Shown: piece after piece, positions 1-10,470 of the stretch
How positions within the stretch are numbered: position 1 is the first letter of the stretch
How the letters are laid out: every line of letters begins with the position of its first letter
NCBI GenBank assembly: GCA_002387845.1
Contig: DGLB01000074.1
Coordinates: 52,081-116,080 of the forward strand
Direction of reading: 5' to 3'
Length of the DNA: 64,000 bases
Origin: Stenotrophomonas maltophilia
GTDB taxonomy: Bacteria; Pseudomonadota; Gammaproteobacteria; Xanthomonadales; Xanthomonadaceae
Program-made: the position numbers and the translations under genes
The notes under the pieces: model-generated
Database searches by the model: none
The model's input: only the letters and a program-made list of their open reading frames with translations
What the model was told of the DNA's origin: nothing

Positions 1-1301
1 GGCAGCGCGTCCTTGGCGGCTTCGTGCTGGGCGCGCTGGCCGGCTGGCTGCTGGGTCCGGCCGCTGAAACCTGGTTTGGTCCGCTCGGCGACCTGTACGT
101 CACCCTGATCAAGATGATCGCGGTGCCGCTGGTGTTCTTCGCGGTCATCAACGCGATCTCCTCGCTGCACGGGCAGAAGTCGGTGGCGGCCCTGGGGGGG
201 CGCACCTTCCTGTGGTTCATCGGCACCGCCGCACTGGCGGTGTGCGTGGGCCTGGCGGTGGGTACGGTCATGCAGCCGGGCACGGGCAACCTCAGCCTGA
301 GCATGGACCACGGCTACACCCCGCGCGAAGTGCCCAGCGTGGTCAAGGTGGTCATGGACGTGGTGCCGTCCAACGTGTTCTATGCACTGAGTGGCATCGG
401 CACGCGGGTCAATGCCGCGGGTGAGACCGTGCTTGCGGCGGGCCGGGGGTCGATCCTGCCGGTGATCTTCTTTGCCGGTCTGATCGGCTTCGCCATGGTC
501 AAACTCGGCGACAAGGTCGCCGAAGCGCGCAAGCTGACCGGGCAGATGAGCGAGATCATGATCCAGATCACCCGCTTCGTGCTGGAGGTGACCCCGCTGG
601 GTACCTTCGGCCTGATCGCAGGGCTGGTCGGCAGCTATGGGTTCGAGAAGCTGCTGCCGCTGGGCAATTTCGTGCTGGCGCTGTACATCGCCTGTGCCCT
701 GCACATCGTGGTGGTGTACGGCAGCCTGTTGCTGGCGCATGGGCTGAATCCGCTGAAGTTCTTCCGCGGCGCGTCGCCGGGCATGCAGGTCGCCTTTGTC
801 AGTTCGTCCAGCTTCGCCGCAATGCCGGTGGCGATGCGCTCGATCACCCACAACCTGGGCGTGAACAAGGACTACGCCTCGTTCGCGGTGCCGCTGGGTG
901 CCAGCATCAAAATGGACGGGTGCGGTGCGATCTACCCCGCGCTGTGCGCGGTGTTCATCGCCCAGTACACCGGCGTGCCGCTCACCCCGGAACAGTATGT
1001 AGTGGTGCTGATCGCCTCGGTGCTGGGCAGCTTCGGCACGGCTGGCGTGCCGGGCACGGCCGTGGTGATGGCCACGGTGGTGCTGAGCGCGGCCAACCTG
1101 CCGCTGGAGACCATTGGGTACCTGTATGCCATCGACCGCATCCTCGACATGATGCGCACGATGACGAACGTGACCGGCCAGATGCTGGTGCCGGTGCTGG
1201 TGGCCAAGGAAACCGGGCTGCTGGACCAGCAGGTGTACGACAACCCGTCCACCAACCCGGGGGTGGATGAAGCGCCACCGGAGCCGCGTTCCGGCAGCTG
1301 A
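1..1301 (+). CDS. Dicarboxylate/amino acid:cation symporter (DAACS family, GltP/DctA-like); 5' end outside window
   Basis: Open frame runs to base 1 with no stop. Conserved DAACS helices are present (LIKMIAVPLVFFAVINAISSL, SSSFAAMPVAMRS, GVPGTAVVMATVVL). The family N-terminus is missing, so the gene starts upstream of the window. Confidence 0.8.
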   Translation, partial: QRVLGGFVLGALAGWLLGPAAETWFGPLGDLYVTLIKMIAVPLVFFAVINAISSLHGQKSVAALGGRTFLWFIGTAALAVCVGLAVGTVMQPGTGNLSLSMDHGYTPREVPSVVKVVMDVVPSNVFYALSGIGTRVNAAGETVLAAGRGSILPVIFFAGLIGFAMVKLGDKVAEARKLTGQMSEIMIQITRFVLEVTPLGTFGLIAGLVGSYGFEKLLPLGNFVLALYIACALHIVVVYGSLLLAHGLNPLKFFRGASPGMQVAFVSSSSFAAMPVAMRSITHNLGVNKDYASFAVPLGASIKMDGCGAIYPALCAVFIAQYTGVPLTPEQYVVVLIASVLGSFGTAGVPGTAVVMATVVLSAANLPLETIGYLYAIDRILDMMRTMTNVTGQMLVPVLVAKETGLLDQQVYDNPSTNPGVDEAPPEPRSGS

Positions 1302-1315
1302 CTGCGTGCTGTAAC

Positions 1316-1365
1316 AGGTGTATCGCCGGGTGTAACAGCCGTGATACACCCGGCGTTAAACCGTT
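1316..1365 (+). terminator. Hairpin after the symporter gene (CGCCGGGTGT-12nt-ACACCCGGCG followed by a T-rich tract)
   Basis: 10-bp perfect inverted repeat at 1324-1333/1346-1355, followed by ttaaaccgttgttatc. Confidence 0.3.
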
Positions 1366-1467
1366 GTTATCAAGGCATCAGCACCTCGCCTGCCCGTGTT
1401 CAGCCGCTGTGAAGACGGCGCGCGGTGTAACACCGCTGTTGCGCTGAGTGTCACGCGCTTGCGCCCA

Positions 1468-1483
1468 AACGCCTGCAATTGCA
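1468..1483. promoter_or_regulatory. Perfect 16-bp palindrome GCCTGCAATTGCAGGC immediately upstream of the candidate fap sigma-54 promoter
   Basis: Read directly from the sequence. It lies 14 nt upstream of the -24 element, a position suited to a repressor or IHF-like site. Confidence 0.3.
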
Positions 1484-1494
1484 GGCCTTCGGGA

Positions 1495-1512
1495 CTTGGC
1501 ACGAATGCTGCT
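1495..1512 (+). promoter_or_regulatory. Candidate sigma-54 (-24/-12) promoter for the fap operon
   Basis: TGGCACG-AATG-CTGCT matches the TGGCACG-N4-TTGCW consensus at 11/12 positions. The -12 GC lies about 34 nt upstream of the fapA start codon (1545), with RBS GGGAGA at 1534-1539. A sigma-54 EBP is encoded immediately downstream of the operon. Confidence 0.45.
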
Positions 1513-1544
1513 CTACCTCTCCCGCATGGTTTCGGGAGATCGCG

Positions 1545-2087
1545 ATGGACAGCGTTGCCGTACGAAGCAGAACCGCACGAAATGCCGCCTGGCTGCTGGC
1601 TCTGGCGGTGTTGCTGCCGATGGCCGCGCAGGCCTCGGGCGCACGCACCGGGGTCAAGGCGCAGCCGGGTGAGATCGTCCTGCTGCGCGATGTCTCGGCG
1701 CGGCCTGCGTACCGGCCCGCACCGCCCGGGGTCGCACTGATTGCCGACCCCTCGCCGAATCGCGAAGTGTCTGCCGCCCTGGGAACGTCTGGCGGCATGG
1801 ACGAACTGGGGGATGAAGATTTCGCCTCGATGGGGTCCAACACCGGCGCGGGCACGACGGGGCACTCGCAGACCACCGTGGAACGGGTCACCGGCGGCAC
1901 GGTCAACGCCACGCTGGGCAACATCACCGAGAACGGGGTGCTTTCCGGCAGCGGGCTGACCAAGACCATGAGCACCCCGATGAGCGCTGTTGGCAACGCC
2001 ACGCGCGGCATCGGCGATACCGTTCGCGGCGCGTTGTCGCAGTTCCCGATGGGCACCGGCCAGCCTGCAGGTGGGCCCGGCAAATGA
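1545..2087 (+). CDS. fapA: Secreted protein at the fapA position of the Fap amyloid operon (signal peptide; weak curlin-like GN(A/I)T motifs)
   Basis: ATG at 1545 preceded by GGGAGA. Signal peptide AWLLALAVLLPMAAQASG. The stop overlaps the fapB start (ATGA at 2084-2087). The assignment is positional: the sequence is not clearly FapA-like and carries NATLGNITENG / VGNATRGIG motifs resembling FapB/C repeats. Confidence 0.45.
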   Translation: MDSVAVRSRTARNAAWLLALAVLLPMAAQASGARTGVKAQPGEIVLLRDVSARPAYRPAPPGVALIADPSPNREVSAALGTSGGMDELGDEDFASMGSNTGAGTTGHSQTTVERVTGGTVNATLGNITENGVLSGSGLTKTMSTPMSAVGNATRGIGDTVRGALSQFPMGTGQPAGGPGK

Positions 2088-2716
2088 ATCGCACTGTCGC
2101 CTTCCTTGTCGTGGCCGCACTGCTGCCACTGTCTGCCGCCGCGCAGCAGGCAGACGACTACGCGGCGATGTTGAGCTATCTCAACCACAGCCGCATTGAC
2201 GGCAATGCGCTGCGCAATGCCGACGGCGCGATCACCGTGAACATGGTGTCCGGCGATCTCAACCAGCAGGCCAATCTGCTGGGTATGGCCAGCGGCGAAA
2301 CATCGGCCATCAACATCAGCGCGCGGCAGCGCCTGGCGGGCAACCGGGTCACCGGTTCGGGTCCGCTGGACGCCAGCGCCAGCATCGGCGGCCAGGCTCT
2401 GAACGGAGCCACCGGCGTTGCCATGATCAATCAGGCCAGCGGCATCGGCAACGCGACGGTCAACGTCGTGACAGCCACGCTGGCGCAACAGGGCATACGC
2501 GAGTCCGACGACGAGGCCCTCGCGGCTTCGGGGGCACTTGCGTCAGCAGGGGGGCAGGACCTCGCCAACAGCCGCAAAGCGGCTGGTACCCGCAGCGTCG
2601 CCGTGGAGGACACGGCATTGCGGGGCTTTGACGGCGTGCTGCAACTCAATCAGATCGCGGGTTCTGGCAACGCCACCGCCAACCAGCTTGGCATCTCCGT
2701 GCAGTCCACCCCGTGA
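2084..2716 (+). CDS. fapB: FapB-like amyloid nucleator subunit (secreted; curlin/Fap repeats)
   Basis: Signal peptide MNRTVAFLVVAALLPLSAAAQQ. Repeats INISARQ..GN, INQASGIGNATVNVVTA, QIAGSGNATANQLGIS fit the Fap/curlin Q/N-G-x-G-N-x-A pattern. Size (210 aa) and position match fapB. Confidence 0.65.
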   Translation: MNRTVAFLVVAALLPLSAAAQQADDYAAMLSYLNHSRIDGNALRNADGAITVNMVSGDLNQQANLLGMASGETSAINISARQRLAGNRVTGSGPLDASASIGGQALNGATGVAMINQASGIGNATVNVVTATLAQQGIRESDDEALAASGALASAGGQDLANSRKAAGTRSVAVEDTALRGFDGVLQLNQIAGSGNATANQLGISVQSTP

Positions 2717-2760
2717 GTTGTTTCACCCACCCGATAGTCCGTGATGAGAGAGAGGGCACC

Positions 2761-4197
2761 ATGAATACCACGATGAAAAGGACCGTACTGGCGCTGGCCG
2801 TCGCCGTTGCTTCTGCGTCGGTAGCCGCAAACCCCCGCCACAATGGACCGGATATCGATACCCGTATCGATACCCATATCGACACTGACATCCATACCGA
2901 TATCGACACCAACATCGATACCGATATCGATACCGACATCGATACCAAGATCCGCAACGAATGGGATTCGCGGACCAAGATCCGCAACACCAGCACCACC
3001 AACACCAGCAGCAACACCAGCACCGACACCCGCACCGTGAACCATTCGCGGCAGGTAACGGTGAACGAGAACGTACAGAAGAACAGCAACATCCAGGCCG
3101 ACGAGCGCAAGGAAAAGAACAACCACGGCGTCGACGTGAACCTGGAATCGGACCTGCAGGTTGGTGCTGATGTGCAGTTCCGCGGCCGTCCCACCGTGTC
3201 GGGTGACCTGGAAGTCGATTCGGCGGCCATCGCCATCATCGACAACCGCCAGTCGGTCACCAACAACCACGGTGACAACGAACTGCTCGAGAACAATTCC
3301 TCGATCAGCGAGAACGTCGCCCAGGGAGCGTCCGGCAACCTCGGCTTCAACACCGCCGCCGGTGACAACAACGCGCAGGACAATGCGGCCTCGCTGTCCG
3401 CCGCGGATGCCTCGTTCACCTTCGGCATGTCCGATGCCCAGGTCTACGTGAACCAGTACGGTGCCGGCAACCAGACCTGGAATGACGGCGTGGTCAACAA
3501 CTCCAGCATCAGCGGCAACGCCTTCCGCAACGCGACCGGCAACATCGGCGTGAACAGCGCGGCCGGCAACAACAACGAGCAGAAGAACGCGCTGGCCGCT
3601 TCGGTGTCCACCGCCCGCATGGCCACGGCGAGCATCAGCTCCAACCAGGTCTCCACGGGTAACAGCGTGTCCAACGAAGGCTACGTCAAGCGCATGCAGG
3701 ACACCACCGAAGTCACCCTGCGTGGCACGGTGCGCGGCGGTACCGCTGCCATCGGCGTCGGCGGTTATCGCGGCAGCGGCAACGCCTACCAGTCGTCCAA
3801 CTTCTATGCGGACAGCTGGGAAGGCGAGCGTCACACCGGTGGCGATTCGACCGGGCATATCGACTATGACAACCAGTCGCAGGGTGCGGTGCAGAACCCG
3901 AACCGTCCGGGCGTCGGCGGTCTGGGCTTCGACACCGAAGAAGAAGGCGTGCTGGCCTTCGGCGAAGTCGGCTATGCCGATCTGCGCGCAAGCCTGAGCG
4001 GCACGGTGCAGACCACGCGCTGGGTGGTTGAGCGTGCGGAAAACAACGCCTCGCTGTCCGGTGATGCGTTCCGCAATGCCAGCGGCAACATCGGTGTGAA
4101 CGTCGCGGCCGGCACCGGCAACCTGCAGGCCAACAGCCTGGCACTGGCCGTGGCCCAGCCGTCCACCGGCACCCCGGGTGGCGGTGGCGGCGAGTAA
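2761..4197 (+). CDS. fapC: FapC-like major functional-amyloid subunit with an N-terminal (x-I-D-T)n tandem repeat and a T/N/S-rich linker
   Basis: RBS GAGAGAGGG before ATG 2761. Signal peptide MNTTMKRTVLALAVAVASASVAA. Three imperfect repeats (SISENVAQGASGNLGFNTAAGDNNAQDNAASLSAADAS; SISGNAFRNATGNIGVNSAAGNNNEQKNALAAS; SLSGDAFRNASGNIGVNVAAGTGNLQANSLALAV) match the known FapC R1-R3 motif GN(I/V)GVNVAAGxxNQQxN. Ends in a Gly-rich tail. Confidence 0.75.
   Translation: MNTTMKRTVLALAVAVASASVAANPRHNGPDIDTRIDTHIDTDIHTDIDTNIDTDIDTDIDTKIRNEWDSRTKIRNTSTTNTSSNTSTDTRTVNHSRQVTVNENVQKNSNIQADERKEKNNHGVDVNLESDLQVGADVQFRGRPTVSGDLEVDSAAIAIIDNRQSVTNNHGDNELLENNSSISENVAQGASGNLGFNTAAGDNNAQDNAASLSAADASFTFGMSDAQVYVNQYGAGNQTWNDGVVNNSSISGNAFRNATGNIGVNSAAGNNNEQKNALAASVSTARMATASISSNQVSTGNSVSNEGYVKRMQDTTEVTLRGTVRGGTAAIGVGGYRGSGNAYQSSNFYADSWEGERHTGGDSTGHIDYDNQSQGAVQNPNRPGVGGLGFDTEEEGVLAFGEVGYADLRASLSGTVQTTRWVVERAENNASLSGDAFRNASGNIGVNVAAGTGNLQANSLALAVAQPSTGTPGGGGGE
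2851..2958 (+). repeat. In-frame 12-bp tandem repeat (about 9 units; gatatcgatacc family) encoding DIDT/RIDT/HIDT/DIHT/NIDT/KIRN inside fapC
   Basis: Eight to nine consecutive 12-nt units read directly: gatatcgatacc cgtatcgatacc catatcgacact gacatccatacc gatatcgacacc aacatcgatacc gatatcgatacc gacatcgatacc aagatccgcaac. Confidence 0.85.
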
Positions 4198-4334
4198 GCC
4201 TGTCCGTTTTCGCAAGCAACACGCGTTGAGCGCAACAAACCCGGTCATCCGCCAATGGCCGGGCTCCCCGGGAGCCCCTGTTCCATCCTCCCCCTTTGGG
4301 GCAGGGGCTCCTTCCTTTTCCTGGAGCCACGCCG

Positions 4335-5030
4335 ATGTCGTTCTGCCGTCTGCTCTGCGCGGTACTGCTGTTGCTGCCGATTGCTCGCCTGCATGCGGGT
4401 GACGTCGCCTTCAGTGGAGTACTGCCCAATGGCGCCCTGTTTAACCAGCAGGTGGAAAGCATGCAGGAGCGGAAATTCCGCAACCTGGTGCGGCAGCACA
4501 CCGACTACAGCTGCGGCGCGGCCGCCCTGGCCACCATCCTGCGTTACGCCTACAACCTGGAGGCGAACGAGGCCACCGTGATCGAGGGCATGATGGGGGT
4601 CTCCGACCCGGAGCTGGTGCATCAGCGCGGTTTCTCGTTGCTGGACATCAAGCGCTATGTCGAATCGCTGGGCATGCGGGGACGTGGCTACCGCGTCAAC
4701 GAAGAGCGCCTGCGTTCGCTGCGGGTGCCGGGCCTGGTCCTGATGGATGTGCGCGGTTTCCGCCACTTCGTCGTGCTCAAGCAGGTCCGTGGCGATGTGG
4801 TGGACCTGGCCGATCCGATTCTGGGCAACCGCAGCATCACGCTTGACGAATTTCTGCAGTCATGGCCGTCCCGCGCCGTGTTCATCGTGATCGGTAGCGA
4901 TTTCAATCGCAACACGGTGTTGCTGCAGCCTGGCGAACGCCCCAGTGCGCGTTCGCTGTACGCCCGGCAGGGGCCGATCACCGAAGCGGAACTGGTGGAT
5001 TTCGGCTTTACCCACGCCGACCTGCTTTAG
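4335..5030 (+). CDS. fapD: FapD-like C39-family cysteine peptidase (periplasmic, signal peptide)
   Basis: C39 peptidase core YSCGAAALATILRYAY (catalytic Cys), with H in RHFVVLK. 231 aa with an N-terminal signal peptide, matching Pseudomonas FapD in size and operon position. Confidence 0.8.
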   Translation: MSFCRLLCAVLLLLPIARLHAGDVAFSGVLPNGALFNQQVESMQERKFRNLVRQHTDYSCGAAALATILRYAYNLEANEATVIEGMMGVSDPELVHQRGFSLLDIKRYVESLGMRGRGYRVNEERLRSLRVPGLVLMDVRGFRHFVVLKQVRGDVVDLADPILGNRSITLDEFLQSWPSRAVFIVIGSDFNRNTVLLQPGERPSARSLYARQGPITEAELVDFGFTHADLL

Positions 5031-5038
5031 GAGGCATC

Positions 5039-5824
5039 ATGAACATCACCCCATGGACGCGAAGTGCGGTATTGCTGGCCCTGCTGGGCATGCTACCGGC
5101 CTACGCCGCCGACGCCCCGGCCACAGACGGGCAACGCAAGGCGGGCAAGGGACTGAGCGAGATTCCCGATCCCGAGCTGAACCTGATGCGCGGCCGTTAC
5201 ACCGTGAATGGCAACAGCGTGGCCTGGTTCGGCGTCACCATGATTTCGCAGTGGCAGGCCGGCACACAGGCCGCCGAAAGTGCGCTCACACTCGGCATGG
5301 ACTTCACCCACAGCGCGACGGCACCGAAAGTCAGCTTCACCCCCAGTGTCACCGTGACCGCGGCCGATGCGCCGCTGCCGGCCACACCGGGCCGCAGCGT
5401 GGAATCGGCCGGGCTGCAGAACGTGGCCGGTGTGACCCAAGCCATCCAGGTGGCCGGCGACAACAACGTGGCCAGCAACAGCACCCAGCTCACCGTGCGT
5501 GAGGGCAGTGCGCCGACCGGGCAGGCCACGTCCGCCGCGCCTGCGGCGACGGCACAGCACGGCGGCGTCAGCGCCGTGGCACAGATGGAGGGCAACAACG
5601 CCCAGGTGCAGCTGCAGATCGAAGGCGTCGGTGCGGTCCAGCAATGGATCCGCAACGGCAGCGTCGGCCAGACCATCGCGCTGAGCAGCGACGGCCAGGC
5701 GGTCAGCAACCGCATGCAGATCGAACTGGTGCGGCAGACCCTGGCAAGCAATGCGCCGTTGAGCCAGAACGTGGCGCAGGCCATGAACTTGGTGCGCGGC
5801 ATTGGCATGGGACCCGGTCAGTAA
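5039..5824 (+). CDS. fapE: FapE-like secreted Fap accessory/minor fibre protein
   Basis: Strong RBS AGGAGG 6 nt before the ATG. Signal peptide MNITPWTRSAVLLALLGMLPAYA. 261 aa, located between the C39 peptidase and the FapF-like barrel as in fap operons. Confidence 0.6.
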   Translation: MNITPWTRSAVLLALLGMLPAYAADAPATDGQRKAGKGLSEIPDPELNLMRGRYTVNGNSVAWFGVTMISQWQAGTQAAESALTLGMDFTHSATAPKVSFTPSVTVTAADAPLPATPGRSVESAGLQNVAGVTQAIQVAGDNNVASNSTQLTVREGSAPTGQATSAAPAATAQHGGVSAVAQMEGNNAQVQLQIEGVGAVQQWIRNGSVGQTIALSSDGQAVSNRMQIELVRQTLASNAPLSQNVAQAMNLVRGIGMGPGQ

Positions 5825-5866
5825 CCGGCCGGGTGGGGGGCGTCACCACAACCGTGGAACAAGGCA

Positions 5867-7165
5867 ATGCACACTTACCGCATGACTCCGCTGGCGCTGG
5901 CGGCGCTGGCGCTGATCCTCTCTGCCGGTGCACAGGCGCAGACCGCACCGGCCGATGAGGCCGACATCAAGGCGTTGGCCCAGCAGCTGGAAACACTGAA
6001 GGCCAACTACGCACAGGAAGTACGCCGCCTGCGCGAACTGGACATGCAGGTGCAGGCCATGCAGGCGCGCCTGTCCGGCAAGACCGGTCCGGCCACCGGT
6101 GCGGCCGCACCACCGCCGCCGGCCGTTGCGGCGGCGACCGCGCCGCCCAGCGGCGAAGGATATGCCAGCACGGCTGCCGAAGCGCAGCAGGCCCAACAGG
6201 CGTCCAAGCGCAGCGTGGACGACGTGAAGCAGCAGACCGCCACCTTGTTCACGCGTCGCTTCACGCTGGAAAACAGCCTGAGCTACGCACGCTATGACCG
6301 CAAGCAGGTGACGTTGAACGGCTTCCTGGCGTTGGACGCCATTTTCCTCGGCAACATCGCCATCGAAAACGTCGAATCGGACACGTTGACCTACAACCTG
6401 GCCGCGCGCTGGGGCGTGACGCCTCGCATGACGCTGAACCTGGACGTGCCGTATCTGGCGCGCAAGACGGTGTTCCAGAAGGGCGGTGCCGGTGGTTCGG
6501 CTGCGGCCATTGCACAGGAAGAAACGACCGGCAACGGGCTGGGTGACATCAGCCTGAGCGGCAACTTCCGTTTGAACCAGGAGAAAGGGCGCTGGCCGGA
6601 AACCGTGCTCAACGTCGGTGTGACCGCGCCGACCGGGCAGGAGCCTTACGGCGTGGACTGGAAAGTACTGGAGCGCGACGAGGACGACTTCATCCGTTTC
6701 GCCGTGCCGGGCGACCAGCCCACCGGCAACGGCGTGTGGCAGGCCAGCCTGGGCCTGTCGGCAGTGAAAACGGCGGATCCGGCGATCCTGTTCGCCAACG
6801 TCGGCTACATCCATTCCTTCGAACGCAGTTTCGACGACCTGGATGGCAATCCGGACACGGTGAACCCGGGTGACGTGAAGCTGGGCGGCTCGATCTACTT
6901 CGGTGCCGGCGTGGCGTTCGCGTTCAACGAGCGCACCAGCCTCAGCATGTCCTTCAGCGACAAGCTCAGCAGCCGCGCTTCCACCCGGTACAAGGGCGGG
7001 CAATGGGTCAAAGTGATCGGCAGTGACGCCAATGCAGCCACGCTGAATCTGGGCATCACCTACGCGCTCAACCGCAACACCACGCTGGTGAGTCAGCTGG
7101 GGATCGGGCTGACGCCGGATGCGCCGGACTTCACGCTTGCCTTCAGAATTCCGTACATGCTCTGA
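5867..7165 (+). CDS. fapF: FapF-like outer-membrane amyloid secretion channel (N-terminal coiled coil + Ala/Pro linker + beta-barrel)
   Basis: Signal peptide. Heptad coiled coil DIKALAQQLETLKANYAQEVRRLRELDMQVQAMQARL. Linker PATGAAAPPPPAVAAATAPP. Alternating-hydrophobic beta-strands ending in an aromatic C-terminus (RIPYML). 432 aa, matching FapF architecture. Confidence 0.75.
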   Translation: MHTYRMTPLALAALALILSAGAQAQTAPADEADIKALAQQLETLKANYAQEVRRLRELDMQVQAMQARLSGKTGPATGAAAPPPPAVAAATAPPSGEGYASTAAEAQQAQQASKRSVDDVKQQTATLFTRRFTLENSLSYARYDRKQVTLNGFLALDAIFLGNIAIENVESDTLTYNLAARWGVTPRMTLNLDVPYLARKTVFQKGGAGGSAAAIAQEETTGNGLGDISLSGNFRLNQEKGRWPETVLNVGVTAPTGQEPYGVDWKVLERDEDDFIRFAVPGDQPTGNGVWQASLGLSAVKTADPAILFANVGYIHSFERSFDDLDGNPDTVNPGDVKLGGSIYFGAGVAFAFNERTSLSMSFSDKLSSRASTRYKGGQWVKVIGSDANAATLNLGITYALNRNTTLVSQLGIGLTPDAPDFTLAFRIPYML

Positions 7166-7256
7166 GGCGCTTCTTCGCTTCGGGGTCATGCGCTACCGGT
7201 CGTTGTTTGTTTCAGTGCCGTCGTCTGTCGACCGACGCTACCGTTCGCACGCCGCG

Positions 7257-7282
7257 CGTAGTGACACGCCATGCGTGTCACC
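7257..7282. repeat. REP-type palindrome GTAGTGACACGCCATGCGTGTCAC between convergent fapF and the EBP gene
   Basis: Perfect hairpin TGACACGC-CAT-GCGTGTCA. The same family recurs at 34451, 38659, 58174, 61268 and 61309. Confidence 0.8.
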
Positions 7283-7361
7283 GGTACTCCATCAGCACGC
7301 CAAATCGCGCACAGCAGCCAGGCAACGCCCGGCGACAGGGAAAACCCGCACTTCCAGGCTG

Positions 7362-8699
7362 TCAGCGCAGTTCGGGCAGGGCGAGCTGGTGTTTGCGGCA
7401 GAGGCGGTAGACGGTGACCCGCGAGACCTGCATGGTGCGGGCGCAGGCGGTGATGTTGAAGTCGTTCTGGCGCAGCGCACGCAGCAGGGCATCGCGCTCG
7501 GCGGCCTGGCGTGCGTCATGCAGCAGGCGCTGCGGCACCTCGATGCCTTCCGGCTCTAGTTCCAGGTCGGCCACCGTGATCAGTTCCGCTTCGCTCACGA
7601 TGGCCGCGCGCTGCACGCGGTTCAGCAGTTCACGTACGTTGCCCGGCCAGCGGAACTGCTGCATCGCCTGCAGCGCCTCGCCGCTGAAACCCCGCGCACG
7701 GGTGACGTGGCGCTGGCGGAAGCTGGCCAGGAAGTGCTCGGCCAGCAGGATGATGTCGCTTCCACGGTCGCGCAGCGCCGGCAACGGCAGGCGCAGCACG
7801 TTCAAACGGTAGAACAGGTCGCGGCGGAACTGTCCGCGTTCCACCGCCTGTTCCAGGTCCACGTGCGTGGCCGCGATCACCCGTACGTCCACCGCCAGCG
7901 GCTGGTTGCTGCCCACCCGCTCGATGGTGCCTTCCTGCAGTACCCGCAGCAGATTGGTCTGCGCGTCCAGTGGCAGGTCGCCGATCTCGTCCAGGAACAC
8001 CGTGCCGCCGCTCGCCGTTTCAAACAGACCCAGCCGGCGACTGGCGGCACCCGTGAAGGCACCACGCTCGTGGCCGAACAGTTCCGATTGCACCAGCGCC
8101 GCCGGGATCGCCCCGCAGTTCACCGCCAGGAAGGGGCGCGCATGCCGGGACGACAGCGCGTGCAGCGCGTGCGCCGCCAGCTCCTTGCCCGTTCCGGTTT
8201 CGCCGGTGACCAGCACCGGCAGTTCCACCGGCGCAAACTTGCGCAGTGCGGCGCGGGTGACCTGCAGCGCCGGACTTTCGCCGATCAGGGCCTGCGCGCC
8301 TGAGGGCGGCTGCAGATGTTGTTCAGCGCCCAGTTCCTGCAGCCGCTGCACCAGGCGGGAAACGTCCAGCGGTGCGCTGAAGGTTTCCGTGCAGCAGGCC
8401 AGCAGGGGCTGCCACTGCGGATGCACCGCCGCCGCACCCGGTGGCAGGATCGCCAGCACGCGCAGGTGGCGGTGCTGGTCCAGCACCGCCTGCAGATGGG
8501 GCAGGTGAGGGGGAGCCACGCTGCGCAGGTCCAGCAGCCCGACCACCAGGTCGTTGCCGCGCATGCCGATCGCCACGGCACCATCGGTCGCCACACCGCG
8601 CACCCGCCAGCCTGCGGCCGCCAGGGCCGTGCGCTCTGCTGCCAGGGGTTGCCCAAACCAGATCACACACCGGGCTGGAATTTCAGGGACTGCCGCCAT
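7362..8699 (-). CDS. Sigma-54-dependent Fis-family transcriptional activator (enhancer-binding protein) with an atypical N-terminal domain
   Basis: AAA+ sigma-54 interaction domain (VLVTGETGTGKELAAHALH, GAFTGA, sensor RDLFYRLNVLRLPLPALRDR) and C-terminal Fis-type HTH (NITACARTMQVSRVTVYRLCRKHQL). RBS GAAGG before the start. Confidence 0.85.
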   Translation of the reverse strand: MAAVPEIPARCVIWFGQPLAAERTALAAAGWRVRGVATDGAVAIGMRGNDLVVGLLDLRSVAPPHLPHLQAVLDQHRHLRVLAILPPGAAAVHPQWQPLLACCTETFSAPLDVSRLVQRLQELGAEQHLQPPSGAQALIGESPALQVTRAALRKFAPVELPVLVTGETGTGKELAAHALHALSSRHARPFLAVNCGAIPAALVQSELFGHERGAFTGAASRRLGLFETASGGTVFLDEIGDLPLDAQTNLLRVLQEGTIERVGSNQPLAVDVRVIAATHVDLEQAVERGQFRRDLFYRLNVLRLPLPALRDRGSDIILLAEHFLASFRQRHVTRARGFSGEALQAMQQFRWPGNVRELLNRVQRAAIVSEAELITVADLELEPEGIEVPQRLLHDARQAAERDALLRALRQNDFNITACARTMQVSRVTVYRLCRKHQLALPELR

Positions 8700-8855
8700 G
8701 CGTCACCTTCACGGAAAGGTATCCGGGCGGAGTCTCCTGCTCAGCGCTACCCGGCGTGCCGCCCCACGCCGGAGTCCACCACCGGGCCATGGGAGGGCAG
8801 GGTGGGTTGTGAAAAGAACAACGCGGGTTCAACCCGCCAACGGCCATGCGGCAGG

Positions 8856-8890
8856 CAACGAAAAAGGCCGCTGCGATGCAGCGGCCTTCA
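8856..8890 (-). terminator. Rho-independent terminator downstream of the NlpC/P60 gene (minus strand)
   Basis: Stem GGCCGCTGC-gat-GCAGCGGCC, followed on the minus strand by TTTTTCGTT. Confidence 0.6.
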
Positions 8891-8916
8891 GGATTCAGGT
8901 GCGAAGCAAACGCCGG

Positions 8917-9753
8917 TCAGAGTTCGACCCGGCGGGCCTGCATGAACTTGCCGCCCCAGTAGCCGGTGATCAGGCTGTCGACGCGGACGTCCTTGCCGGT
9001 GCTCGGGGCATGCAGGAAGCGGCCTTCACCCACATAGATGCCGACGTGGTCGACCCGGCCCTTGCGGCCGAAGAAGACCAGGTCGCCTGCGGCCAGGGCG
9101 TTGCGGTCGTTGATCAGCTGGGCTTCGCCATCACGGGCCATTTCGCGCGACACGCGCGGCAACTCGATGCCCAGCGCGGTGCGGAACACATAGCCGACCA
9201 GGCCGCTGCAGTCGAAGCCGCTGTCCGGCGAGGTGCCGCCCCAGCGATACGGCGTGCCCAGCAGGGTCATGGCGCGGCGGAGCAGGGACTGGACCTTGCC
9301 GTTCTCGGCCGGGTCGGCGGCCACGATGGTGCCGTTGGACGCGTCGTAGTTCGCCAGCAGGCGGCTCAGGTCACCGGCGACCATCGCCGAGCGGTCCATG
9401 AGCGGAATGGTGTCATTGGCTGCCAGGTGCGGCAGCAGCGCGGCCAGGGTGGCGCTGGCGGCCGCATCGGTCTTGCTGCGGACCGGTGCCTCAGCCTTGG
9501 GCTTGGCAACGGCGGGAACCTCGGTGGCCGGCGTGGCCGGGATCGCAACTGCCTCCGGCGTGGCCGTCGGAGCGGTCTGGGCCCAGGCCGGAACACTGGC
9601 CAGGCAGAGGGCGAAAGCGAGAAGAGCGGGGCGGGCGATACGCCGTGGGGTGGCGGTCTGGCCTTGGCACGTCAAGTCGGCTGTCGTCACGCGGCGGTCA
9701 CTGAATAAAAACGATGGGTGATGATGCCGTGGAAAGCGTGTGATTAGGTACAA
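8917..9753 (-). CDS. NlpC/P60 (C40) family cell-wall peptidase, secreted
   Basis: YRWGGTSPDSGFDCSGLVGYVF ... DHVGIYVGEGRFLHAPSTG motifs (Cys-His catalytic residues of C40 peptidases). The start codon is uncertain; the signal peptide LLAFALCLASVPAWA lies downstream of the first Met. Confidence 0.75.
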   Translation of the reverse strand: MYLITRFPRHHHPSFLFSDRRVTTADLTCQGQTATPRRIARPALLAFALCLASVPAWAQTAPTATPEAVAIPATPATEVPAVAKPKAEAPVRSKTDAAASATLAALLPHLAANDTIPLMDRSAMVAGDLSRLLANYDASNGTIVAADPAENGKVQSLLRRAMTLLGTPYRWGGTSPDSGFDCSGLVGYVFRTALGIELPRVSREMARDGEAQLINDRNALAAGDLVFFGRKGRVDHVGIYVGEGRFLHAPSTGKDVRVDSLITGYWGGKFMQARRVEL

Positions 9754-9821
9754 ATTTCGTTAAATTTTCGTTTAACTAGGCGTGATGCTTGTCACACTTT
9801 GCGACCTTTCCCCTGTTCAGC

Positions 9822-10361
9822 TTAGTGCAGAACGCGTTTCGCGCCAGTGTAGTGGTCCTTCCAGTAGCTGCCGCCCAGCGAGTCCAGGCGGACCGTGCCA
9901 CCGGTGCTGGGGGCGTGCACGAAGCGCCCTTCGCCCACGTAGATACCCACATGGAAGACATTGCCGCGGTTGCCGAAGAACACCAGGTCGCCAGCCGCCA
10001 GGCGCTGGGGATCGATCTTCGGGCCTTGCACGGCGGCGAGGTCACGCGAGGTGCGGGGCAGTTTCAGGTCGACCATCTCGCGGTAGACGTAGGTCACCAG
10101 CCCACTGCAGTCGAACCCGGATTCGGGGGTGTTGCCGCCGTAGCGGTAGGGTGTGCCGACCAGACCGATGGCGCGCATCAGCACGGCGTTGGCGGCCTGC
10201 GGGTTGTTCGGGGTCACCGTGGGCCAGACCTGGGTCGAGCTCGGCGGTGCGGAAGGGCGGGCGGTTTTTCCGCCGCCACAGGCGGTCAGCAGGGCCAGAA
10301 CGGCAATCAGCGCCAGATGGGCTGGCAGGCGGGTCAAGCGCGAAACTGGCGTCAGCAGCAT
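9822..10361 (-). CDS. NlpC/P60 (C40) family lipoprotein peptidase (paralog of the preceding gene)
   Basis: Lipobox LALLTAC. YRYGGNTPESGFDCSGLVTYVY ... FHVGIYVGEGRFVHAPSTG. Start chosen at MLLTPVS (10361); the ORF could extend to 10424. Confidence 0.75.
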   Translation of the reverse strand: MLLTPVSRLTRLPAHLALIAVLALLTACGGGKTARPSAPPSSTQVWPTVTPNNPQAANAVLMRAIGLVGTPYRYGGNTPESGFDCSGLVTYVYREMVDLKLPRTSRDLAAVQGPKIDPQRLAAGDLVFFGNRGNVFHVGIYVGEGRFVHAPSTGGTVRLDSLGGSYWKDHYTGAKRVLH

Positions 10362-10470
10362 GATGTCCGGATAATGCGCGGCCTTGGAAGTCGCCATGAT
10401 GGCGGCGTAACCGGCGGGCGACAACCCGTCCCACCCGTCTGCCCCGGCAGCCCCAGCACAAGAGTTCCGT

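Follow-up and report, generated by a model that had tools for sequence, protein, structure and literature searches.

A predicted Fap-type functional amyloid operon with a linked sigma-54 activator gene in Stenotrophomonas

The fap operon and its products

Analysis of a 64,000-nt stretch of DNA from Stenotrophomonas maltophilia (contig DGLB01000074.1, assembly GCA_002387845.1; hereafter the window) revealed, on the plus strand between positions 1545 and 7165, six intact co-directional open reading frames (ORFs) corresponding to fapABCDEF, the operon of the Fap functional amyloid system (Table 1). On a public contig of 100% identity, an independent gene call returned all six product lengths unchanged, and the genes are separated, from fapA to fapF, by intergenic spacers of -4, 44, 137, 8 and 42 nt. 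Inspection of the translations identified a Sec-like signal peptide at each of the six N-termini, with a basic n-region, a hydrophobic core and an AxA-type cleavage site. Inspection together with profile matches gave the layout of FapF as a signal peptide, a heptad-patterned helix, an Ala/Pro linker, a plug region and a beta-barrel with PTG motifs, seen by eye as APTGQEP and QPTGNGVW. The functional unit exceeds these six genes: a sigma-54 promoter and candidate activator sites precede them, and a gene for a BrfA-like activator follows.

Comparison with the NCBIfam Fap models showed that each of the six proteins matches its own model, in operon order from FapA to FapF. Among solved structures, residues 115-431 of FapF match the FapF barrel (PDB 5O65, E 3.8e-78), and residues 153-310 and 427-464 of FapC match the FapC fibril subunits (PDB 9U4U/9NQD, E about 4e-17), with all three FapC repeats (R1, R2 and R3) aligned, while FapB found no PDB relative at E up to 0.1. 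In FapD, the catalytic residues of the PCAT1 peptidase domain have aligned counterparts in Cys (DYSCGAA), His (RHFVVL) and Asp (LADP). The C39 peptidase was the only family recognised among the six proteins in the local copy of Pfam, where FapA, FapB, FapC and FapE gave no match; the assignments thus rest on NCBIfam and PDB sequence matches, the family PF27129 (FapBC) having been seen for FapB and FapC in precomputed annotations only. Identity to Pseudomonas-like loci, that is, metagenome loci obtained with the FapF sequence of Pseudomonas sp. UK4, was 27-47% by tblastn (FapB 32-38%, FapE 27-32%, the activator 47%).

These results bear out an earlier note, made from the sequence alone, which had described a complete fapABCDEF operon in a Stenotrophomonas-like genome: the six models in order, the PDB matches of FapF and FapC and the FapD triad agree with the operon call, and the relatives of FapF and FapC come nearly all from Stenotrophomonas. 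The comparison with hidden Markov models (HMMs) that the note had proposed returned matches to the FapB, FapC, FapD, FapE and FapF models, though under their curated cutoffs. The peptide YSCGAAALATIL, quoted there as belonging to a C39 cysteine peptidase, lies in FapD; the 261-residue secreted protein is FapE; and the 432-residue outer-membrane protein has the FapF architecture, as indicated by the 5O65 match and, by inspection, by the heptads and the Ala/Pro linker. The description of three consecutive proteins with Gln/Asn/Gly/Ala-rich repeats holds for FapB and FapC, with three repeats each, but not for FapA, which is Gly/Thr-rich and lacks clear repeats. The position of FapA (kept in 76 loci), its signal peptide and this composition agree with what is expected of a FapA protein, which is an optional component of the system and frequently absent in other taxa.

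A scan for FapF with one genome per species returned 155 relatives, and the locus comparisons reported here use the best 80 of these, which are nearly all from Stenotrophomonas, with a few from Lysobacter, Novilysobacter and Xanthomonas sp. Relatives of FapC at 60-94% identity were all from Stenotrophomonas species. Gene order was checked by tblastn of the window proteins in loci with enough flanking sequence, and the order A-B-C-D-E-F was found in all of the approximately 77 species loci of the Stenotrophomonas/Lysobacter group that could be examined in this way. The fap operon is a genus-wide feature of Stenotrophomonas. Two Stenotrophomonas-type fap loci occurred in assemblies carrying other names, namely L014 (JAHREJ010000021.1, titled Bacillus subtilis; FapF 84% identical) and L029 (JBJNRH010000003.1, titled Nocardiopsis yanglingensis; FapF 76% identical); these assemblies are probably contaminated or mislabelled.

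Table 1. Positions of the fap genes, associated elements and flanking genes in the window, with profile matches of the encoded proteins
Feature	Position	Strand	Product (aa)	Description	Profile match (E-value)
fapA	1545-2087	+	180	Secreted, Gly/Thr-rich, probably disordered periplasmic chaperone	NCBIfam chaperone_FapA 6e-8; 33 bits (cutoff 110); 146-position model
fapB	2084-2716	+	210	Minor/nucleator amyloid subunit; three repeats	NCBIfam FapB 1.2e-23
fapC	2761-4197	+	478	Major amyloid subunit; alternative in-frame GTG at 2713 (494 aa)	NCBIfam FapC 3e-50; 172 bits (cutoff 195)
fapD	4335-5030	+	231	Periplasmic C39 cysteine peptidase; alternative TTG at 4296 (244 aa)	NCBIfam C39_FapD 1.1e-75; Pfam Peptidase_C39 7e-19
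fapE	5039-5824	+	261	Secreted accessory/minor fibre component	NCBIfam FapE 3.2e-23; model positions 28-238 of 247
fapF	5867-7165	+	432	Outer-membrane secretion channel	NCBIfam FapF 1.1e-114; residues 18-431, model positions 10-419 of 420; 384 bits (cutoff 700)
Sigma-54 enhancer-binding protein gene	7362-8699	-	445	BrfA-like; convergent with fapF	Pfam Sigma54_activat 2e-69, VpsR 3.5e-5, HTH_8 2e-5
-24/-12 promoter	1497-1512	+		TGGCACGAATGCTGCT; GG 1498-1499, GC 1510-1511; 33 nt before the fapA ATG	
Proximal candidate activator site	1426-1443	+		TGTAACA-CCGC-TGTTGCG; ~70 nt upstream of the -24 element	
Distal candidate activator array	1310-1348	+		TGTAACA 1310, TGTATCG 1319, TGTAACA 1331, TGATACA 1342	
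Two-hairpin RNA element	4240-4332	+		fapC-fapD spacer; ends at the fapD Shine-Dalgarno sequence	
12-nt tandem DNA repeat, eight copies	2851-2946	+		In fapC (Tandem Repeats Finder); encodes (D/x)IDT tetrapeptides of the N-terminal extension	
SDF-family dicarboxylate/amino-acid:cation symporter gene	24-1301	+		Upstream flank	Pfam 8e-108
First lipoprotein gene	8917-9753	-		Downstream flank; NlpC/P60-like by motif only (DCSGLV)	
Second lipoprotein gene	9822-10424	-		Downstream flank; NlpC/P60-like by motif only (DCSGLV)	

The FapC protein is organised as a signal peptide, an N-terminal extension of ~120 residues, repeat R1, segment L1, repeat R2, a segment L2 of ~115 residues, repeat R3 and a Gly-rich C-terminus, the cores of the three repeats being SGNLGFNTAAGDNNAQDN, TGNIGVNSAAGNNNEQKN and SGNIGVNVAAGTGNLQAN. 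The pattern GN(I/V)GVNxAAGxxNxQxN, which the earlier note had assigned to all three repeats, is exact in repeats 2 and 3 and approximate in repeat 1, where L/F replaces I/V. Alignment showed that R1, L1, R2, L2 and R3 are strongly conserved within the genus. The extension represents ~120 additional residues of the mature protein in comparison with the Pseudomonas model and the solved chains, and its first ~85 residues are rich in Thr, Asn, Asp and Ser and hypervariable among species. In the clade of the window they contain eight (D/x)IDT tetrapeptides, encoded by the 12-nt repeat. The copy number of this repeat varies even among relatives with 91-95% identity, and many species lack the array; among the relatives, 72-146 residues separate the start of FapC from the conserved motif ADERKEKNNHG. 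Confidence in the AlphaFold2 model of FapC is low throughout and lowest in the extension, the N-terminal 145 residues having a predicted local distance difference test (pLDDT) score below 45. Separate searches of PDB and Pfam with the extension and with L2 gave no credible relative. A match to Nef was at noise level, and the resemblance of FapC residues ~60-68 (window 2938-2964, KIRNEWDSR) to the influenza M2 ectodomain peptide IRNEWGSR of a chimeric PDB construct was attributed to chance, the similarity (E 3.8-67 per stretch) being inflated by tandem copies in the target. In NCBI and UniRef, orthologues of FapC are labelled 'adhesin' or 'hypothetical protein'.

The sigma-54 promoter, the activator gene and the spacer RNA

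The sequence TTGGCACGAATGCTGCT at 1496-1512, upstream of fapA, is a near-consensus -24/-12 element, and the pattern TGGCACGNNNNYTGCW has a single match in the 64-kb window, at this very promoter. Among 77 related loci, TTGGCA[CT]G-N4-xTGC is found 5' of fapA in 76; a stricter pattern is present in 46 of the 77, and inspection of the remainder showed the motif with G for T after TGC. No sigma-70-like promoter was found in the interval 1250-8900. Further upstream, the heptamer TGTAACA occurs three times in the window, and all copies lie here (1310, 1331 and 1426). Within the 260 nt that precede the promoter, it is conserved better than any other 7-mer, occurring in 67 of 76 loci, with fixed offsets from the promoter near -69 and near -152 to -165. 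In particular, the proximal site is located at -68 to -70 in 49 loci, with the consensus TGTAACAcc...GTtgC, i.e. TGTAACA-N4-cGTTGC, and the distal site has the consensus TGTATCA-N5-TGTAACA-N4-TGATACA across loci. Since such positions are typical for enhancer-binding proteins (EBPs), we infer that the TGTAACA/TGTATCA heptamers are candidate binding sites for the EBP encoded next to fapF. In roughly half of those Pseudomonas-like loci that have a promoter-like match, the hexamer GTTACA lies ~140-160 nt upstream of it, which is a hint, and not proof, of a shared motif.

The EBP consists of a VpsR-type receiver-like N-terminal domain, an AAA+ domain with a Walker A motif and the GAFTGA loop (ERGAFTGA), and a Fis-type helix-turn-helix. 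In Pseudomonas fluorescens PF07, brfA is described as a 1326-bp "adjacent reverse gene downstream of fapF" and is needed together with RpoN for fap transcription, fapA having an RpoN-dependent -24/-12 promoter (PMC9207406). A reverse EBP gene lies just 3' of fapF in each Pseudomonas-like locus obtained; in one of them, L083, it measures exactly 1326 nt (441 aa), in size and position as brfA (PMC9207406), and its product is 47% identical to the window EBP over 427 residues, N-terminal domain included (E 6e-114). The BrfA protein senses cyclic di-GMP (c-di-GMP), and fap transcription in P. fluorescens is c-di-GMP-responsive; binding of the activator to c-di-GMP and to the DNA upstream of fapA, with activation of transcription, is known for P. 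fluorescens only (PMC13101488). By analogy, the Stenotrophomonas EBP is probably responsive to c-di-GMP as well.

In 77 of 81 Stenotrophomonas-group loci the EBP gene accompanies fap, mostly convergent after fapF. In 13 loci, mostly of the S. maltophilia type (L028, L029, L035, L036, L039, L042, L043, L047, L048, L054, L059, L063 and L070), it is instead located upstream of fapA and divergent from it. That the linkage has outlasted this rearrangement argues for functional coupling of the two. In most related loci, the symporter gene and the first of the two lipoprotein genes that flank the locus in the window (Table 1) show synteny with fap. The 13 rearranged loci lack both the upstream symporter and the downstream NlpC/P60-like neighbours; the fap-EBP module therefore moved as a unit.

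The 137-nt spacer between fapC and fapD folds as two hairpins, the second with a stem of 16 bp. The minimum free energy of the fold is -48.9 kcal/mol (z -4.6), and no shuffled sequence was equally stable. In the consensus structure of 22 diverse loci, 96% of cells are paired, compared with 39-58% in controls with slid partners, and compensatory changes affect 7 pairs, compared with 0-2 in the slid controls, and none of 500 shuffles reached the observed value. Because these 22 loci had been selected after a crude hairpin scan, and the set therefore carries a selection bias, a covariance model was built and searched across the window and all related loci. It gave one significant match in the 64-kb window (87.5 bits) and exactly one match in each of 76 of the 77 related loci, without exception in this spacer and on the coding strand, so that a dispersed repeat of the repetitive extragenic palindromic type was rejected as an explanation. 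No match to the model was found in the fapC-fapD spacer of the Pseudomonas-like loci, and a search of Rfam with positions 1-10000 of the window returned no family. Weak matches to the model (24-33 bits) also occurred on the minus strand at the fapF/brfA junction of the Pseudomonas-like loci L084-L135 (~8945-9130); these are probably generic bidirectional terminator hairpins and not homologues of the spacer RNA.

Stem-loops internal to operons are known to set subunit stoichiometry, by way of internal terminators or of selective RNA processing and stabilisation (PMC9045158, PMC4423207). Like these, the fap element is a strong, conserved hairpin placed between much-needed structural genes and less-needed machinery genes; the comparison is one of position, and the fap spacers of most species have no U-tract. 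It is doubtful that the hairpin acts as a classical intrinsic terminator in most species. As the U-rich tail is limited to the clade of the window, a differential output of fapABC and fapDEF is favoured, by attenuation or by 3'-end stabilisation.

Proposed mechanism and competing explanations

Homology, gene order, conserved motifs and conserved RNA pairing are direct observations on this locus. Six proteins matching six Fap models in order, in an order kept in related loci, constitute an arrangement far beyond chance. We conclude, with a probability of roughly 0.88, that the locus is a complete and intact Fap system of a Stenotrophomonas species, working with the neighbouring regulator gene.

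In the mechanism proposed for this system, the BrfA-like EBP would bind the TGTAACA/TGTATCA heptamers ~70 and ~165 nt upstream of the -24/-12 promoter and, being c-di-GMP-responsive by analogy, would activate sigma-54 RNA polymerase for the transcription of fapABCDEF. All six products would be exported by the Sec pathway; in the periplasm, FapA would hold the subunits unfolded, the C39 peptidase FapD would be required for secretion, and a trimeric FapF barrel would export FapB, FapC and FapE. Outside the cell, the three Asn/Gln/Gly/Ala-rich repeats of FapC may stack as a Greek-key beta-solenoid, giving extracellular amyloid fibres that FapB would nucleate or enter as a minor subunit and in which FapE would be a minor component; the predicted outcome is a biofilm matrix scaffold. 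The fibre surface would carry, as decoration, the long L2 and the N-terminal extension rich in Thr, Asn and Asp. Finally, a higher output of fapABC than of fapDEF is most likely set by the two hairpins in the fapC-fapD spacer, through partial termination or through stabilisation of the transcript 3'-end.

Several points weigh against this interpretation. The curated NCBIfam equivalog cutoffs were not reached by any of the six proteins. The assignment of FapA is weak, with an E-value of 6e-8 and no tblastn match in the Pseudomonas-like loci, and thus depends on a weak profile match and on synteny. The AlphaFold2 model of FapC, built from an alignment of 28 sequences, is of low confidence (mean pLDDT 46, predicted template modelling score 0.33) and uninformative. 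A U-rich tract after the spacer hairpin is seen in this clade only. At the position of the Arg-Asn pair that follows Walker A in FleQ-type proteins, which we take to be c-di-GMP-binding, the EBP has His-Ala (KELAAHALH), and c-di-GMP is thus a putative ligand. More generally, how the system of this organism is regulated, secreted and assembled into fibrils is inferred at every step. As to the scores, the cutoffs appear to be tuned to Pseudomonas orthologues and do not appear to signal non-membership in the wider Fap family, because both the published identities of 17-39% and the measured ones of 27-47% show the divergence of these proteins. With all six proteins under these cutoffs, routine annotation leaves the system unlabelled in Stenotrophomonas.

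The profile searches also raised the question of a Fil-type putative pilus system, composed of a FilB C39 peptidase and a FilC outer-membrane protein, in place of a Fap amyloid, given that FapD matches the NCBIfam model pilus_FilB (1.3e-33) and FapF matches pilus_FilC (1.6e-22). The Fap models, however, score far higher for both proteins (254 vs 117 bits for FapD and 384 vs 80 bits for FapF), and this gap leads us to reject the pilus; moreover, FapA, FapB, FapC and FapE match Fap models only, and the FapC repeats align with solved FapC fibrils. A Fil pilus is accordingly extremely improbable. It is likewise very hard to sustain that the operon is a relic, silent or in decay, and flanked by coincidental motifs, for which the sub-cutoff profile matches could be adduced. 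All seven ORFs (six fap genes and the EBP gene) are intact, and gene order, promoter, heptamers and hairpin are kept in ~77 species-level genomes at 50-97% protein identity; together with the compensatory changes in the RNA, this cross-species conservation is indicative of purifying selection.

An unlikely, if somewhat less strained, explanation is that the FapC homologue, though exported by the Fap machinery, serves mainly as a non-amyloid secreted or surface adhesin by means of its extension and L2. The name 'adhesin' borne by its orthologues in NCBI and UniRef points this way, as do the location of about half of the mature protein outside the three repeats and the strong conservation of L2 within the genus. 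That name, however, is automatic and has no experiment behind it, whereas the three repeats are the most conserved parts of the protein and retain the Asn/Gln/Gly ladder at the positions aligned with the fibril core. Furthermore, Pseudomonas FapC proteins with an L2 of 103-259 residues form fibrils (PMC12392863), and adhesion and amyloid formation are not mutually exclusive.

Beyond the intact Fap system favoured here, we put forward tentatively, and with more doubt than belief, that Fap has gained two undescribed layers in the Stenotrophomonas/Lysobacter lineage, namely a cis-regulatory spacer RNA and a hypervariable N-terminal module of FapC. The spacer RNA could work as an attenuator, stabilise the transcript or bind a protein, and would set the ratio of subunits to machinery. 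In the FapC module, which is rich in Thr, Asn and Asp and includes (D/N)(I/V/L)(D/N)T arrays, the number of repeats would shift by 12-nt slippage, and, if this is true, the variable module might give the fibre surface a strain-specific charge, possibly with cation-binding or adhesive properties.

The genus Stenotrophomonas includes multidrug-resistant opportunists and plant-associated strains, and its biofilm matrix is poorly defined. A conserved, sigma-54-controlled Fap system is a plausible matrix scaffold and anti-biofilm target, an idea already present in the literature; what is added here is a regulator, a promoter and candidate sites that are now directly testable. The spacer RNA and the variable FapC N-terminus provide, in turn, small and concrete hypotheses on the control of stoichiometry and on the tuning of the fibre surface.

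Relation to described Fap systems and to curli

The Stenotrophomonas fap operon is an already catalogued system with minor lineage-specific features. [quoted passage not shown] In addition, a 2025 structural paper surveyed GTDB and reported 1172 fap clusters (PMC12392863). The view of the earlier note that a Stenotrophomonas version had gone unstudied appears correct as regards experiment, no experimental study of it having been found in the literature searched; as a catalogued operon, it has been on record since 2013. The locus of the window agrees with the operons of Dueholm et al. in genus and in fapABCDEF organisation, both descriptions being based on genome sequences. It goes beyond the accessible text of PMC3792158, PMC6173800 and PMC12246864 in the linked EBP, the sigma-54 promoter, the heptamers, the spacer RNA and the N-terminal extension, which are not described there.

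With the Pseudomonas operons (P. aeruginosa PAO1, P. fluorescens and Pseudomonas sp. UK4) the locus shares six genes in identical order, a C39 FapD with an intact triad, and a FapF with a coiled coil, a linker and a 5O65-homologous barrel. It also shares the three imperfect FapC repeats, with L1 of ~30 and L2 of ~115 residues, the latter within the Pseudomonas L2 range of 35-259 residues (PMC12392863). It differs from them in the ~120-residue Thr/Asn/Asp-rich N-terminal extension of FapC, in a longer and barely recognisable FapA (180 aa, against a model of 146 positions) and in the conserved two-hairpin element that occupies the fapC-fapD spacer of the Stenotrophomonas group. As in the BrfA/RpoN system of P. 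fluorescens PF07, a reverse Fis-type activator gene encoding ~441-445 aa follows fapF and a -24/-12 promoter precedes fapA; unlike in PF07, the activator gene of S. maltophilia-type genomes is placed upstream and divergent. The promoters themselves also differ, reading TTGGCACG-N4-CTGCT in Stenotrophomonas and CGGCACGGCTTCTGCT in the Pseudomonas-like loci.

The curli system of Enterobacteria (csgBAC/csgDEFG) comprises major and nucleator repeat subunits, a periplasmic anti-aggregation chaperone and a dedicated outer-membrane channel, and its fibres form extracellularly by nucleation-precipitation. Fap follows an analogous logic of subunits, chaperone and channel, while no sequence homology was detected between Fap and curli components. 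The two systems differ in genetic organisation as well, curli being encoded by two divergent operons under sigma-S/CsgD and Fap by one sigma-54 operon.

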